From a virus (lineage: Duplodnaviria; Caudoviricetes), in IMG/VR virus record IMGVR_UViG_3300037264_008235, positions 1,466-65,465 of that record: a stretch of DNA of 64,000 bases; one strand, given 5' to 3'. Below are positions 41,978-46,924 of this stretch, in pieces; the first letter of the stretch is position 1, and each line of letters opens with the position of its first letter. The notes under the pieces were generated by a model. The model had not been told where the DNA came from. It worked only from the letters and a program-made list of their open reading frames with translations, and ran no database searches. The position numbers were made by a program, and so were the translations under genes.

Positions 41978-42508
41978 GTGAAGACGCTCGCCCGCTGCCT
42001 CACCTCTCCGCTCCTCCTCCCGACGGCGCTCGCCGCGCTGCTCCTCCTCTCCCGCCCGGCGGGCGCCCAGCTCGAGGCGCGGCACCTCGTCCGGCGGGAC
42101 GGGCCGGCGTCCGCGCTCGCGTCGCTCGACCTGGCGAACCGCGGGCCGGACCCGTTCCGGATCCTCGTCGTCTCCTTCGTCGGCCCGCCGGCGGAGCTCG
42201 TCGCCGTCCTCCCGCCACCGCTCAACCAGCAGCGGGTCGGGGACGGTACGGTCTCCGTCGTCGACCTCGGGACGCTCGCGCCGGGCGCCGAGGCGACCGT
42301 CCTCGTCCGCGTCGCCCTCTCCTCCGCCCGCGAGTGGGCCCACGCCGTCCTCCTGGACGCGGAGAACGTCCGCACGGGCGCGCGGGTCTGCGAGCGCCGC
42401 GACGCGCCGGTCACGGAGACCGCCGTCCCGTTCGCGGACGCGCGGACGCTGGTCGTGCTCGCGCTCGCGCTCGGCGCCGCGCTCTGGTGGAAGACGAGGC
42501 GGCCGTGA
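41978..42508 (+). CDS. Secreted protein with IPTL/PEP-CTERM-like C-terminal anchor
   Basis: Signal peptide ..PAGA-Q; ends VPFADARTLVVLALALGAALWWKTRRP. Confidence 0.6.
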   Translation: MKTLARCLTSPLLLPTALAALLLLSRPAGAQLEARHLVRRDGPASALASLDLANRGPDPFRILVVSFVGPPAELVAVLPPPLNQQRVGDGTVSVVDLGTLAPGAEATVLVRVALSSAREWAHAVLLDAENVRTGARVCERRDAPVTETAVPFADARTLVVLALALGAALWWKTRRP

Positions 42509-42815
42509 GGCTGAACCTGACCGTCCAGGCCCGGACCGCCGCGGTCGTCGAGGAGCTGAAGAACGGAGACCCCTCGGTCGTCGTCCTCCGCCACCTCCAG
42601 CTCTGCGCGGCCGACGCGCTCCGCTCCCTGGCGCGCGCGTTCGACGACGCCGCGCAGACGGAGAGCGAGGCCGCGTTCGCCACCTACGGGGACGACCCGG
42701 AGACGCCGTGGCCGGAGTGTGTCGTCGCGTCCGTCCGGCGCGCGAACTCCTGCGCCTCGGCCGCGCGCGCGACGGCCGACGCCCTCGACCGCGCGGCGGC
42801 GCGGGACGGTTTCTG

Positions 42816-43952
42816 ATGTGGCTCCTCCCGCCGTCCGCTGCCTCTCTCTGTTCTCCGGGCTCGACGGTCTCTTTGCTGGACTCCGCCGCGCGCTTCCCGG
42901 AGCGCGTCTTGTGGCTTGCGCGGAACGGGAAGCCTTCCCCGCGGCCGCTCTCCTGGCCCGGATGGAAGACGCGTCCCTGGAGCCGTGTCCTGTTTTCTGC
43001 GGCGACGTCCGGGAGGTGGACTGGCGCGGCTGGGCCGGAGCCGTGGACCTCGTCCTCGCCGGCTGGCCCTGCCCGCCGGTCTCCCTCGCCGGCAAGCGGC
43101 TCGGCCGGAAGGACGAGCGGTGGCTCTGGCCGGAGGTCACGCGCGCCCTTCGCGAGACTGGCGCCGGATGGCTCCTGGCAGAGAACGTGCGCGGCCTCCT
43201 ATCTGCCGACGATGGAGCCGCCTTCGGAGAGGTTCTCGGGGACCTGGCCGGTCTCGGGTTCGATGCGGAGTGGGACGTGTTCAGCGCGGCTGAGGTCGGA
43301 TCGTCCCAGCGGCGCGAGCGAGTGTTCCTCCTGGCCCGCTCCCGACGCGTCGGAGGCGGGCTCGAACCGGAGCGCCTCCTCCGGAGCTGCCGAGCGGCCC
43401 GCGATCGCGACGGCCGCGCGGAGCTGGGCCAGCCCGCGGACGGTGGACGGGAAGTACCGGGACGGGAAGGGCGGGCGCTTCCTGACGCTCGAGGGGCAGG
43501 CGACGGCGCTCTGGCCGAGCCCGATCGCGTCGGACGCGGAGAAGGGGGTCGACCGGCGCTTCGACCGCAACCCGACGCTCCTCGGCGCGGCGCGGGACTG
43601 GCCGACGCCGGGCGTCCCGAACGGGGGGCGCACGCTGCCTCCGGGGACGAGCCGGACGGGAGTCGTCCCGGACGGGCGGCAGCGGCAGGTGGACCTCCGG
43701 CGCGAGGCCGCGCTCTGGCCGGCGCCGGTCGCGAGCGACGCGCGGAGCGGGGAGGCGTCGGAGGCGACGGCGCGGAAGAACAGCCGGCCGCTCCGCGAGA
43801 CGGCGCTCCGCGCGCTGCCTTCCCTCCTGGACCGAACGAGCACGAGAAATGGAGCAGAATCTGCGCCCTCCGTTACGACCTCGCGCCAGCGCTTGAATCC
43901 CCGCTTCGTGTCCGTGCTGATGGGACTCCCTTACTGGTGGACGGAGATCTGA
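42816..43952 (+). CDS. Overlapping MTase beta-type polypeptide (TRD-like repeats and motif IX-like end)
   Basis: Five WPxP..SD-like repeats; ends RLNPRFVSVLMGLPYWWT. Confidence 0.65.
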   Translation: MWLLPPSAASLCSPGSTVSLLDSAARFPERVLWLARNGKPSPRPLSWPGWKTRPWSRVLFSAATSGRWTGAAGPEPWTSSSPAGPARRSPSPASGSAGRTSGGSGRRSRAPFARLAPDGSWQRTCAASYLPTMEPPSERFSGTWPVSGSMRSGTCSARLRSDRPSGASECSSWPAPDASEAGSNRSASSGAAERPAIATAARSWASPRTVDGKYRDGKGGRFLTLEGQATALWPSPIASDAEKGVDRRFDRNPTLLGAARDWPTPGVPNGGRTLPPGTSRTGVVPDGRQRQVDLRREAALWPAPVASDARSGEASEATARKNSRPLRETALRALPSLLDRTSTRNGAESAPSVTTSRQRLNPRFVSVLMGLPYWWTEI

Positions 43953-44521
43953 ACCGTGAAGAGGTGCCGGTCCTGCGGAGCGGAGTTGGCTCAGAAGAGG
44001 TTCCGCAGCGGAGTGCTCGAGGCTCCGTGCATGATGAAGCGGCGGGTCTACTGCGACCGGACCTGCATGGCGGCAGGGATGATGAAGCCGGTCTCCGCGT
44101 TGACGCGCTCTGGGCTCTTGGTTCGGGCTCGCCGGCATTTGAAGTCGCGCTGCGAGCGTTGCGGGACGTCTCAGCGTCTTGGAATCCACCACGCCGACGG
44201 CGACTGGAGGAACAACTCACCGCACAACCTGATCACGTTCTGCGCTTCTTGTCATACGCGGCACCACCACGAGCGTGGGGACATCGTTCCGCGGAGGATT
44301 CCGAGGTCCTGTCCGGTGTGCGGGCGGCGTTTCTGGCCGAGCGGTTTCAAACCCCGGACGTGCTCTCGCTTCTGCGGGCAGGCTCTCAGACACAGGCGCG
44401 CCTCCGGGCGATGAGCCGAGATGACCGCCTGCTCCGACTACGCGCGCTGGGCAACGCGGTCGTCCCTGACTGCGCGGCCCGGGCCTTCCTGACGCTCCTC
44501 CCCCGCCTCCTGGAGCCGTAA
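42818..44521 (+). CDS. C5-cytosine DNA methyltransferase, alpha-type frame (motifs I-VIII and X)
   Basis: SLFSG, AGWPC, ENV, QRRERVF, LRALGNAVV. Confidence 0.85.
   Translation: MAPPAVRCLSLFSGLDGLFAGLRRALPGARLVACAEREAFPAAALLARMEDASLEPCPVFCGDVREVDWRGWAGAVDLVLAGWPCPPVSLAGKRLGRKDERWLWPEVTRALRETGAGWLLAENVRGLLSADDGAAFGEVLGDLAGLGFDAEWDVFSAAEVGSSQRRERVFLLARSRRVGGGLEPERLLRSCRAARDRDGRAELGQPADGGREVPGREGRALPDARGAGDGALAEPDRVGRGEGGRPALRPQPDAPRRGAGLADAGRPERGAHAASGDEPDGSRPGRAAAAGGPPARGRALAGAGRERRAERGGVGGDGAEEQPAAPRDGAPRAAFPPGPNEHEKWSRICALRYDLAPALESPLRVRADGTPLLVDGDLNREEVPVLRSGVGSEEVPQRSARGSVHDEAAGLLRPDLHGGRDDEAGLRVDALWALGSGSPAFEVALRALRDVSASWNPPRRRRLEEQLTAQPDHVLRFLSYAAPPRAWGHRSAEDSEVLSGVRAAFLAERFQTPDVLSLLRAGSQTQARLRAMSRDDRLLRLRALGNAVVPDCAARAFLTLLPRLLEP
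43956..44414 (+). CDS. HNH endonuclease overprinted within the MTase ORF
   Basis: CERCG..LGIHHADGDWRNNSPHNLITFCASCH; additional CxxC motifs. Confidence 0.8.
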   Translation: MKRCRSCGAELAQKRFRSGVLEAPCMMKRRVYCDRTCMAAGMMKPVSALTRSGLLVRARRHLKSRCERCGTSQRLGIHHADGDWRNNSPHNLITFCASCHTRHHHERGDIVPRRIPRSCPVCGRRFWPSGFKPRTCSRFCGQALRHRRASGR

Positions 44522-44565
44522 GTCGCGCCGGCGCGTAGGTGTTATACCGCTTCGCGGATTCCGGC

Positions 44566-44622
44566 TTTTCCCGTAACGGGAACCTGCCGTGGCGGTATAA
44601 TACCCGCGTAAAGAAAGGACGG
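44566..44622 (+). promoter_or_regulatory. Phage promoter plus RBS homologous to 30661-30717
   Basis: TTTTCC.GTAACG-17bp-TATAAT-ACC..CGTAAAGAAAGGACGG. Confidence 0.7.
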
Positions 44623-44628
44623 CGAAAC

Positions 44629-46924
44629 GTGACTACGAATCAGAGAACGCTGGCGGCCGAGGCCGGGCGGTTCCGCGTCTTCCACGACGGGACGGTCGAG
44701 GGACCGGCCGACTACATGCGGAGCGCGCGGGCGGCGGAGACCTGGGCGCGGATCGAGAACGGGACCCACGTCCTGATCGCGGCCGCGCCCGAGGGCCTCT
44801 CCCTCTTCTCCCTGATCGCGGTGGCGCTCCAGACCGACTACGCGGCGTGGGCCGGGCAGCGCGGGCTCGATACGTTCCGGGAGGTGTCCCGTGAGTAGCG
44901 CGAAGCGGTTGGGTAGCCACTACCGAAGTCCCGGGCTCCGACTCCCGGTTCCCGTCCCAGCGCGCGTCGCGGAGGGGATCGCGCTGGTCCGCGCGCGGGG
45001 CGTCAACCTCCTCCGTTCCGGATCGGTCGCCTTCATCGCCGGGAACCTCGGCTACCCGGAGGTCGGACCGTGGATCGAGGCAGACCCGCGCCGCTACGCG
45101 CGCCTGCTCGCCGCGGACGGCGCCGCGCTCCCGCTCCCGCCCCCGACCACGCTGGCGCTCGCGGCCGCGGTCGCCGCGTTCCTCGAAGCGCTGGACTTCT
45201 GGGGCCCCTCCGACAACGACGGGCCGGCGGACCGCGTCCGCGTCCTCCTCCTGGTCGCGCCGGACTCGCCGCTCCGGACGGCGGCGGCGGAGGCGCTGGA
45301 CGTCTTCGACGACCCGGACGGCGCGCCCGACTCGACGTGGAGCGGGCGCTGGTGGCACGCGCAGGAAAAGCTGAGGGCGGTCCTCGCCGAGACGCCGCTC
45401 TCGACGAAGGGAGGCGGGAAATGATCGCCCCGGACATCCTCGCGCGGGATGCGCGCGGGGAGGACGTGCTCCTCCGAACGCCGTGCTGCGCGCGGCTCGT
45501 CCGGCGCGCGCTCCCGGCCGTCGCGACGGAACAGATCTCCGTCCGCTGCCGGAAGTGCGGCGCGCGCTGGCGCGTGATCTCCCGGCCGGTCTCCGCGAGC
45601 CGCCGCGCGGTCGTACGAGTGATCGAGTGGTCGAGGAAGAAAGGAGCGTCGAGATGAACCGCGGCATCCGGATCTCCGAGAAGCACGGGGTCAACCCGTC
45701 CGTGGGCGTCTGCTTCTTCTGCGGGGAGGAGGACGGGACGGTGATTCTGGCCGGCCGGCTTACGGGCGACGCGGAGGCGCCGCGCCGCGCCGTCTGGTCG
45801 CACGATCCGTGCCCGAAGTGCAAGGAGCACATGAAGGCCGGCATCGTCCTGATCTCCGTCGACCCGGCGAGGAGTCCGGATCACGCGAACCCGTGGAGGA
45901 CCGGAGGCTGGTGCGTCGTCAAGGAGGAGGCCTTCCGGCGCCTCTTCTCCGGACCTCCGGTCGAGACCAGCCTGAAGCTGAGGTTCGCGTTCGTGGAGGA
46001 CGCGGTCTGGGACCGCGTCGGTCTACCGCGCGCGGGCGCGGAGAAGGCTTGACGGTGCCGCTCGACGCCGAACGGATGAGGCGGGAGCTGGAGCTCACGG
46101 GGTTCTCCCGCGGGTACCGGGTCGCCCGCTACTCGTGGGACCAGACGCTCTGGGCCGTGACCACGACCGCCGGGACGGTCCTCGACCTCGCGCCGACGCT
46201 CGCGGCCGGGATCGCCCGGGCGGTCGAGATCGAGCTGGAATGCGAGGAGGTAAAGTGACGACCGAGAAGAAGAAGCCGGAGCCGGAAGACCTGTGGGCGG
46301 AACTGACCCGGCACGCGTGCCCGCACGCCGGAGCGCCGAAGGGCGGGCCGGCGCCGGCGCGGATCACGTGCGAGAAGTGCGTGAACGATGCGGGAGCCGC
46401 GCGCGCGGCCGTCCCCGCCGCTCCGGCGGCGCTCGTCGCCCTCCTGTCGTTCTTCTGCCTCGTCGGGGCGCTGGCGACGCTGTCGTGGGTGCTCGGGTGA
46501 GCCCGTGACGTACGCCGAGTGGATCGCGGCGCGCTACCCGGATACTGCCTCCGCGCGCGCGTGCTGTGCCGAGGCGACAAGGAAGCTGGTCGCCGCGTTC
46601 CCCGAACTGCGCCGCGTCCGCGGGCACTACGTCTGCCCGCTGTGGGGCCCTCGCGAGCACTGGTGGTGCGTCGCGCCAGACGGGTCGGTCGTGGACCCGA
46701 CGCAGGCGCAGTTCCCCACGAGAGGAGGGTTCGAGTACGAGGAGCGCGATGAGACGCGGCCGGAGCCGACGGGACGCTGCCACAATTGCGGGGAGTACTG
46801 CTACGGCGGGCGAACCGACACGTGTTCCGCCGCGTGCCACGAGACGTACCGCGCCTATTTGATGGACCTCCTACGATTGAGGCAACTCCGGCGGCGCCTG
46901 CGGACCGCGAGGGCCGACGGGTGA
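44629..46924 (+). CDS. Cluster of small hypothetical ORFs (44629-44898, 44891-45424, 45421-45657, 45654-46052, 46505-46924 and others)
   Basis: Coupled ORFs, several Cys-rich. Confidence 0.5.

Follow-up and report, generated by a model that had tools for sequence, protein, structure and literature searches.

Organization of the locus

The window analysed here, 64,000 nucleotides from a virus of the Caudoviricetes (IMG/VR record IMGVR_UViG_3300037264_008235, positions 1,466 to 65,465), makes up most of a 65.5-kb contig with a GC content of approximately 72%. It harbors a C5-cytosine methyltransferase locus in which three genes share one stretch of DNA: a long open reading frame (ORF), alpha, with the catalytic motifs of the enzyme; a second methyltransferase ORF, beta, nested in the +1 frame of alpha; and, behind the stop codon of beta, a complete HNH endonuclease gene (Table 1). 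Relative to homologous methyltransferases the HNH gene is an insertion, and the alpha frame running across it is kept free of stop codons by selection.

The alpha frame is open from 42719 to 44521, corresponding to 600 codons, with GTG 42818 as the likely start. The beta ORF ends with WWTEI and a TGA at 43950–43952, followed by ACC and, at 43956, by the GTG of the HNH gene. The TGA of the latter (44412–44414) in turn overlaps an alpha-frame ATG at 44411, from which alpha reads MSRDDRLLRLRALGNAVVP... to its stop at 44519–44521. The original prediction, made from the letters of the window alone, had described an HNH gene (43956–44414) that starts 3 nt past the beta stop, lies wholly inside an alpha ORF remaining stop-free across it, and ends in an ATGA overlap ahead of motif X, and the coordinates together with the ORF readout agree with it on each of these points.

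The insert differs in composition from its surroundings, with a GC fraction of 0.63–0.66 vs. 0.72–0.81 in the flanks. GC by codon position marks alpha as the coding frame over 42940–43360 and beta over approximately 43400–43950, where GC at the third position (GC3) is close to 1.0; in the HNH frame, GC3 is 0.77–0.87. The region 42700–44700 was identical (0 differences) to an independently assembled contig of a public sequencing run, possibly from the source sample, so the frame changes are not assembly slips of the IMG/VR record alone. Small indels near the alpha start, at 42847–42855, set apart a single run X1 contig (depth 10.7 of 28.4), which suggests a related variant in the same sample.

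Table 1. Features of the methyltransferase/HNH locus (positions within the window).
Feature	Position	Strand	Description
Alpha ORF, C5-cytosine methyltransferase	42818..44521	+	Motifs I–VIII at the N-terminal end, motif X at the C-terminal end; spans the beta and HNH genes
Beta coding region	43056..43952	+	Frame +1 of alpha; WPxP repeats, KNSRPLRE, motif IX LNPRFVSVLMGLPYWW; TGA 43950–43952
Upstream copy of the alpha/beta overlap segment	43892..43951	+	Beta reading, end of motif IX; alpha reading, degenerate ESPLRVRADGTPLLVDGDL
GGAG, Shine-Dalgarno-like motif	43943..43946	+	9 nt upstream of the HNH GTG
HNH endonuclease gene, 152 aa	43956..44414	+	Beta frame; N-terminal CxxC...CDRxC zinc knuckle, HNH core, C-terminal CxxC ribbon
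Alpha-frame read-through segment, ~160 codons	43952..44431	+	Stop-free out-of-frame reading of the HNH gene; predicted low-confidence loop
Alpha C-terminal 36 codons	44411..44521	+	Begin with the ATG overlapping the HNH stop (ATGA); motif X LGNAVVP 44447–44467

The alpha/beta methyltransferase

The N-terminal part of alpha is a C5-methyltransferase catalytic domain (Pfam PF00145, E 1.3e-28, residues 40–206 of the 600-aa ORF), and the ORF also matched the DNA methyltransferase families phrog_363 (E 4e-44) and phrog_116 (E 3e-41) of the PHROG database. The catalytic PC and ENV motifs are present, and the last 36 codons carry motif X as RLRALGNAVVP. The beta ORF is supported by matches to hidden Markov models (HMMs) at 43056–43289 and 43281–43949, by a PHROG match to phrog_1008 (E 2e-10) and by the alignment of its relatives; its WPxP repeats look like a target-recognition part. 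A tblastn search with the alpha N-domain (E <= 1e-8) matched 1150 phage records, of which 483 were Mycobacterium phages. One of the top matches, gp69 of Mycobacterium phage Hades, was a short methyltransferase of 237 aa without an insert and was set aside as uninformative.

In relatives without an HNH gene (loci L003–L006) alpha is uninterrupted, with a length of 244–468 aa, consisting of motifs I–VIII, a poorly conserved middle and then motif X, while beta is nested in its +1 frame. The nested layout was found in 145 of the 155 HNH-less loci that possess the alpha N-domain. The end of beta (EWLMGFPxGW...) and the stretch of alpha that precedes motif X (RVAxGxPxRVDRL) are in these relatives the same DNA in two readings. 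A nested beta in frame +1, with motif X following beta, is the rule in these loci (L124–L277), which come from many phyla and from phages, and annotated records of such nested loci usually call only one methyltransferase gene.

An AlphaFold2 (AF2) model of the 567-aa alpha was confident for residues 1–199 and again for residues 535–567; over residues 541–567, which include motif X and the C-terminal helix, the predicted local distance difference test score (pLDDT) was 86–97. Residues 200–332 and 357–434 fell below 50, and the remainder ranged from 47 to 79 except for short low stretches. The model fits a tolerated loop, as proposed for the ShiLan domain by the authors who described it (Arsenault, Gosselin & Gogarten, Genes 2025, PMC11855218); the accessible part of their paper presents it as an insertion in mycobacteriophage DNA methylases which adds no stop to the host frame.

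The HNH endonuclease

The identification of ORF 43956–44414 as an HNH endonuclease gene holds at the level of sequence and predicted structure, and nuclease activity is predicted from them. The window protein scored below the Pfam gathering cut-offs (16.8 bits vs. 21.4 for PF01844 and 17.5 vs. 21 for HNH_2; E 0.004–0.007); it matched the PHROG family phrog_1271, "HNH endonuclease," at E 8.7e-14, and PF01844 was matched at E <= 0.001 by 31 of the 49 aligned relatives. Residues H78, H79, N91 and H100, as well as C66, C69, C96 and C99, are invariant across this 49-sequence alignment and present in the window protein. Its AF2 model had a mean pLDDT of 93.5, with strands at 75–79 and 92–96 followed by a helix at 97–107. 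Moreover, since the N-terminal cysteine pair C4 and C7 is conserved, GTG 43956 is required as the start of the gene.

The closest HNH proteins (P0003, P0004 and P0005) share 56–60% identity with that of the window. All three have an extra C-terminal tail of 30–40 residues (...SETPSCPPK...), missing from the window protein, which resembles some beta ORF ends (e.g., that of L003), as if the HNH ORF continued into a duplicated beta tail.

The HNH gene as an insertion

Comparison with homologues lacking the HNH gene, which the original prediction had proposed as a check, identifies the gene as an insertion: alpha is intact in L003–L006 and, among the 22 alpha relatives nearest to the window, is uninterrupted in 21. 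In the window, motif IX precedes the HNH gene and motif X follows it. The stretch leading up to motif X occurs twice in the alpha frame, as a degenerate copy upstream of the gene, ESPLRVRADGTPLLVD, and in functional form downstream; the alpha reading ESPLRVRADGTPLLVDGDL is a degenerate form of EPxVxRVAxGxxxRVDRL, the stretch preceding motif X in the uninvaded relatives. A duplicated overlap segment flanking the HNH gene is clear at the protein level in four other loci (L047, L090, L030 and L041). At the DNA level, no direct repeats flanking the window insert were found beyond chance-level 10–13-mers, and local alignments of the insert flanks in 12 loci gave short matches only. A GAGAT target duplication at the insert was considered and dropped, no flanking direct repeat exceeding chance.

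The second part of the same proposal, an invasion without an intron or intein, is also borne out. A scan of 42600–44700 against Rfam at E <= 10 returned three chance-level matches and no intron family. The alpha-frame reading of the insert, which starts with ...VDGDLNRE and ends with ...AMSRDD, has no intein end residues, having neither C/S/T nor an HN signature. Indeed, the HNH ORF fills the insert, with 3 nt before it and none after it, and is out of frame with alpha; the insert is thus not an intein.

Selection on the host frame across the HNH gene

In 2000 synonymous-codon shuffles of the window HNH ORF, the alpha frame had on average 3.5 stops and was stop-free in 1.55% of cases (P = 0.0155). 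The alignment of the HNH family retrieved 80 metagenome loci and 36 genome loci, from which 52 distinct HNH ORFs scoring at least 60 bits, originating from metagenomes, metagenome-assembled genomes (MAGs) and phages, were used for a test of the frame. The host frame (HNH+2) was stop-free in 47 of these 52 ORFs, which share ancestry and are not independent draws, as compared with a total of 0.36 open frames expected from the shuffles. The open HNH+2 frame extended to loci of 34–45% GC (L051, L018, L032 and L088), and the HNH+1 frame contained about as many stops as the shuffles predict. An HMM-detected methyltransferase part accompanied 38 of the 47 open-frame loci; in the others that were checked, methyltransferase motifs IX and X can be recognized by eye in the open frame. 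The five exceptions (L029, L046, L048, L095 and L108) had no methyltransferase HMM match and look like free-standing HNH genes.

The stop-free alpha frame across the HNH gene is not due to chance and is kept by selection: at 30–50% protein identity synonymous sites are saturated, so an open frame that persists means purifying selection. Selection on the host frame within the insert implies that the insert is translated in that frame, and this argues against RNA splicing, a dead methyltransferase and a separate chain with motif X. The original prediction had left two ways for the HNH gene to be tolerated, namely read-through or production of motif X as a third chain of 36 aa. The first is strongly supported by the 47 open frames against the 0.36 expected, whereas the second is not supported, as its start codon is not conserved (see below).

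The order alpha N-domain, beta, HNH and motif X recurs in dozens of loci according to HMM scans. The insertion is also found in a cultured phage of low GC content, Staphylococcus phage CUB-EPI_14 (ON325435.2, L278:815-2620), whose gp45 is annotated as one DNA-cytosine methyltransferase of 601 aa and hides a 160-aa HNH ORF (1974–2456) in its +1 frame. A second, annotated HNH endonuclease gene of this phage, gp47, lies 260 bases downstream.

Translation of the HNH protein and the motif-X start

Across 45 related loci, the HNH start lies no more than 12 nt from the preceding in-frame stop in 38, an upstream ORF with a motif-IX-like beta end is present in 25, and a Shine-Dalgarno (SD)-like motif precedes the HNH start in 28. 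This arrangement suggests termination-reinitiation coupled to beta as the simplest route to the HNH protein. That the HNH gene shares the frame of beta follows from geometry, both being +1 of alpha, and is no extra evidence for coupling.

At the other end of the gene, an alpha-frame start codon overlaps the HNH stop in 13 of the 45 loci, and this codon is ATG in 2 of them. By chance, 15 of the 20 TGA-terminated ORFs would be expected to have such an overlap, arising from NTGA with N other than C. Loci L008, L009 and L010, which have the most similar HNH, have no start overlapping the HNH stop.

A promoter scan of 42500–44800 gave no promoter-like site, and a terminator scan of the same region gave a single candidate, located on the minus strand and no better than chance. 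Just 3' of the alpha stop, at 44538–44604, lies a 13-nt inverted repeat, 92% complementary and with 41 nt between its arms. The right arm contains TATAAT, and the GTG of the next gene is near 44629; the repeat may act as a regulatory hairpin or as an operator ahead of that gene.

Distribution and variation of the insertion

On a FastTree phylogeny of 146 alpha N-domains, whose rows came from two different searches with biased sampling, the HNH gene occurred in 13 carriers and required at least 10 changes, of which at least 7 were forced by well-supported branches. Such a patchy distribution is expected for a mobile element, and the lower GC of the insert likewise speaks for mobility. The position of the HNH gene also varies: in single-frame enzymes (e.g., L022, L093, L302 and CUB-EPI_14) it precedes motif IX, whereas in the window and in L008 it follows this motif. 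When viral contigs were scanned with the HNH protein of the window as the only query, one partial relative was recovered.

Several loci depart from the layout of the window. The most similar HNH found with its context, at 50% identity (L008:2058-3599), is again placed between motifs IX and X; the methyltransferase there is apparently single-frame, with motif IX LNPRFVEWLMNWP in the alpha frame and no beta ORF. In L026:2211-4265 and L039:1-1485 the host frame continues for approximately 190–260 codons past the HNH gene before motifs IX and X, which places the HNH gene much further upstream, in the target-recognition region. The frame that is open across the HNH gene and carries motif X in L012:1513-3471, L011 and L043 is the beta frame and not that of the alpha N-domain; these would be a different kind of split or an assembly frameshift. 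Finally, L271:2056-3385, which is close to the HNH-less L161 and L237, contains a partial HNH match (52 bits), and has its HNH and motif X in frames that have ceased to match alpha, which suggests either a copy in decay or an error of assembly.

Proposed explanation and its alternatives

We propose that the locus is a module of three overlapping ORFs on a phage contig (alpha, beta nested in +1 and HNH behind the beta stop), with an HNH element of the ShiLan type inserted out of frame, after motif IX and ahead of motif X. The element would not be spliced; instead, ribosomes translating alpha would read straight through the HNH gene, from which selection removes stops in the host frame. Alpha would thereby gain a loop of about 160 residues before motif X, probably disordered, and would presumably tolerate this loop and stay active. 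The HNH protein would be made from its own GTG, 3 nt past the beta stop and 9 nt past GGAG, most likely by reinitiation coupled to beta. Overall, we put the probability of this explanation, a frame-transparent HNH gene read through within an EcoHK31I-type methyltransferase and presumably maintained as a selfish homing element, at about 0.7. Four of its elements have been shown, namely the anatomy of the locus, the selection that acts on the open frame, the status of the gene as an insertion when compared with homologues, and its patchy distribution; a selfish, homing-type element is the most likely nature of the HNH gene, with homing itself the conjectural part.

A number of observations weigh against this explanation. 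The HNH proteins are as diverged (35–50% identity) as their hosts, and their identities show a moderate correlation with those of the alpha N-domains (r = 0.49; 78 pairs from 13 loci), so the association looks old and recent homing is unsupported. The invariance of the catalytic residues also argues against recent mobility, and one catalytically intact family kept in 47 loci would equally fit a useful partner nuclease. The biased sampling of the tree has been mentioned above. In the window itself the flanking duplication is only weak. No empty-site allele was seen in the contigs of two runs, although contigs show presence and not absence; nor was there a contig joint skipping the HNH gene in these two runs, the second of which covers short conserved pieces only. 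A PDB fold search with the whole HNH model returned nothing at E <= 0.001, and no subfamily can be assigned from its weak matches, which include Cap5, PacI, I-HmuI, McrA and Gme.

Some of these points lead to the most serious alternative, which we nevertheless regard as unlikely, namely that the HNH protein is the partner nuclease of the methyltransferase, with its expression tied to that of the enzyme by nesting. It could then be a restriction-like cutter of unmethylated DNA, a Vsr-like enzyme that nicks T:G mismatches for repair after deamination of 5-methylcytosine, or a nuclease degrading host DNA. A partner role would account for the invariance of both catalytic and zinc-binding residues across the 49 sequences, for the host frame kept open in 47 of the 52 related ORFs with a detectable methyltransferase in 38 of them, for the HNH start adjoining the beta stop in most loci and for the partly correlated divergence of HNH and host. 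There is also a precedent in the dcm-vsr pair of Escherichia coli, where a nuclease gene overlaps a C5-methyltransferase gene. However, a partner would hardly be expected to be distributed so patchily on the methyltransferase tree (at least 7 to 10 changes for 13 carriers, with 21 of the 22 nearest relatives lacking it), to occupy different positions in different enzyme types, or to leave a degenerate, frame-broken copy such as that in L271. Moreover, the HNH protein has no similarity to Vsr, and its published relatives act, according to the accessible parts of two papers, as horizontally moving elements (PMC9957025, PMC11855218). In a further form of the idea, which is more doubtful still, the nested HNH gene would be more than tolerated and would serve as the third functional component of a compact module, complete in itself and found across many phyla, with its synthesis slaved to that of beta. 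If so, the HNH protein would arise through termination-reinitiation, or else through ribosomes now and then reading past the only in-frame stop of beta, the latter fusing the nuclease to the DNA-recognition subunit of the methyltransferase; a nuclease made only alongside protective methylation would turn the locus into a three-frame unit resembling restriction-modification or repair.

The remaining alternatives deny that alpha is translated as one functional chain across the insert, and all of them have to contend with the host frame kept open in 47 of the 52 ORFs. That the insertion cuts alpha, leaving motif X as a separate 36-aa peptide reinitiated at ATG 44411, is suggested by the ATGA overlap, by the confident helix (pLDDT 86–97) modelled for the tail and by the ability of C5-methyltransferases to tolerate splitting, as reported for M.EcoHK31I in the accessible part of PMC2836561. 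Yet overlapping starts are no more frequent than chance allows (13 of 45, and ATG in 2 of 45, vs. 15 of 20 for NTGA), they are missing from the three loci with the most similar HNH, no canonical SD precedes ATG 44411, and nothing would prevent alpha ribosomes from reading through; besides, the alpha frame within the HNH gene would be unconstrained. A three-chain enzyme is accordingly very unlikely. Less probable again is splicing of the insert, be it at the RNA level as an HNH-bearing group I or group II intron or at the protein level as an intein. HNH genes are common in group I introns of phages, as discussed in the accessible part of PMC11855218, and the alpha-frame sequence before the insert weakly resembles that after it, a likeness which the ShiLan authors noted there as a possible intron-like sign. 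Against this, no Rfam intron family was matched, the HNH ORF takes up the whole insert without room for an intron core, and the open host frame is sensible only if translated; for an intein, the HNH gene is in the wrong frame and the end residues are missing. Least probable of all is a methyltransferase inactivated by the insertion, with an open frame that is mere luck in GC-rich DNA. High GC does make long open frames common, and the P of 0.016 from the window alone is not overwhelming, but the same open frame occurs in loci of 34–50% GC, where shuffles never produced it, and the locus retains an intact motif X and the catalytic motifs PC and ENV, with a codon-position GC typical of coding sequence.

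Significance

Frame-transparent residence, which stands beside introns and inteins as a way for an endonuclease gene to lodge in a host gene, is shown by these loci to be more than a peculiarity of mycobacteriophages. At least 47 diverged loci display it, in phages, metagenomes and MAGs from many phyla, with a clear statistical signature of selection on the host frame, and when the host is an alpha/beta methyltransferase, the same DNA is occupied by three overlapping reading frames. How the hidden nuclease is translated is a question left open in print, and the close juxtaposition of beta stop and HNH start suggests an answer that can be tested. Such loci also matter for annotation, since gene callers turn them into a single long methyltransferase and overlook both the beta subunit and the nuclease, as exemplified by gp45 of CUB-EPI_14; this cultured phage would be a tractable experimental system.

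Comparison with known systems

The closest known counterpart is the ShiLan domain. As described in the accessible part of PMC11855218, it shares with the present element a phage DNA methylase as the host, the absence of a host-frame stop, an HNH domain with flanking zinc fingers encoded in another frame, a GTG close to the insert's 5' end as the HNH start, the lack of intron or intein features, a predicted poorly ordered loop as the in-frame product and an insert start resembling the host sequence after the insert. Its distribution among related methylases is also disjunct (Genes 2023, PMC9957025, accessible part), and further out-of-frame cases are mentioned in the accessible parts of a genome announcement (PMC12613952) and a preprint (10.1101/2025.01.02.630785). 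The host family of the published ShiLan insertions may be related to the present methyltransferase family. In comparison with ShiLan as reported there, the present host is a two-frame alpha/beta enzyme, so that three ORFs overlap, and the HNH gene is in frame +1 of the host and not in the third frame. The authors left the mode of HNH translation open and proposed leaderless initiation, whereas here the HNH gene begins 3 nt past the beta stop and behind an SD-like motif, which provides a route for coupling. Furthermore, ShiLan domains are near-identical, while the present HNH proteins are as diverged as their hosts. A tblastn search with the HNH protein in 50,697 phage records gave 18 matches, none of them in a Mycobacterium phage, in a collection that may lack ShiLan itself.

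The methyltransferase of the window is EcoHK31I-type by layout, being likened to that enzyme by its alpha/beta organization and not by sequence. According to the accessible part of PMC2836561, M.EcoHK31I has an alpha with motifs I–VIII plus X, and a beta with motif IX lying wholly inside alpha in another frame. No HNH gene is described there for M.EcoHK31I, and the present beta has WPxP repeats in addition.

With I-HmuI the present protein has in common the HNH core and the residence in a conserved phage gene, and the I-HmuI structure 1u3e gave one of the weak fold matches, with a probability of 0.96 across 47 columns. It differs from endonucleases of the I-HmuI type in having no intron, the host gene being read through and not split or spliced. 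In the dcm-vsr pair of E. coli, the 3' part of the C5-methyltransferase gene is shared with the nuclease gene, which uses another frame and is translated in coupling with the gene upstream. The fold of Vsr is a different one, and the overlap comprises a few codons vs. the whole HNH gene nested here.

No paper was found that describes such an insertion together with a nested beta, the adjacency of beta stop and HNH start, or statistics testing it across phyla, in a literature search that extended neither to the supplements of PMC11855218 nor to its repository, which may list overlapping carriers. Overall, the out-of-frame insertion of an HNH gene into a methyltransferase was already published in 2025, and the present case is broader and anatomically richer than that precedent, and not categorically new.

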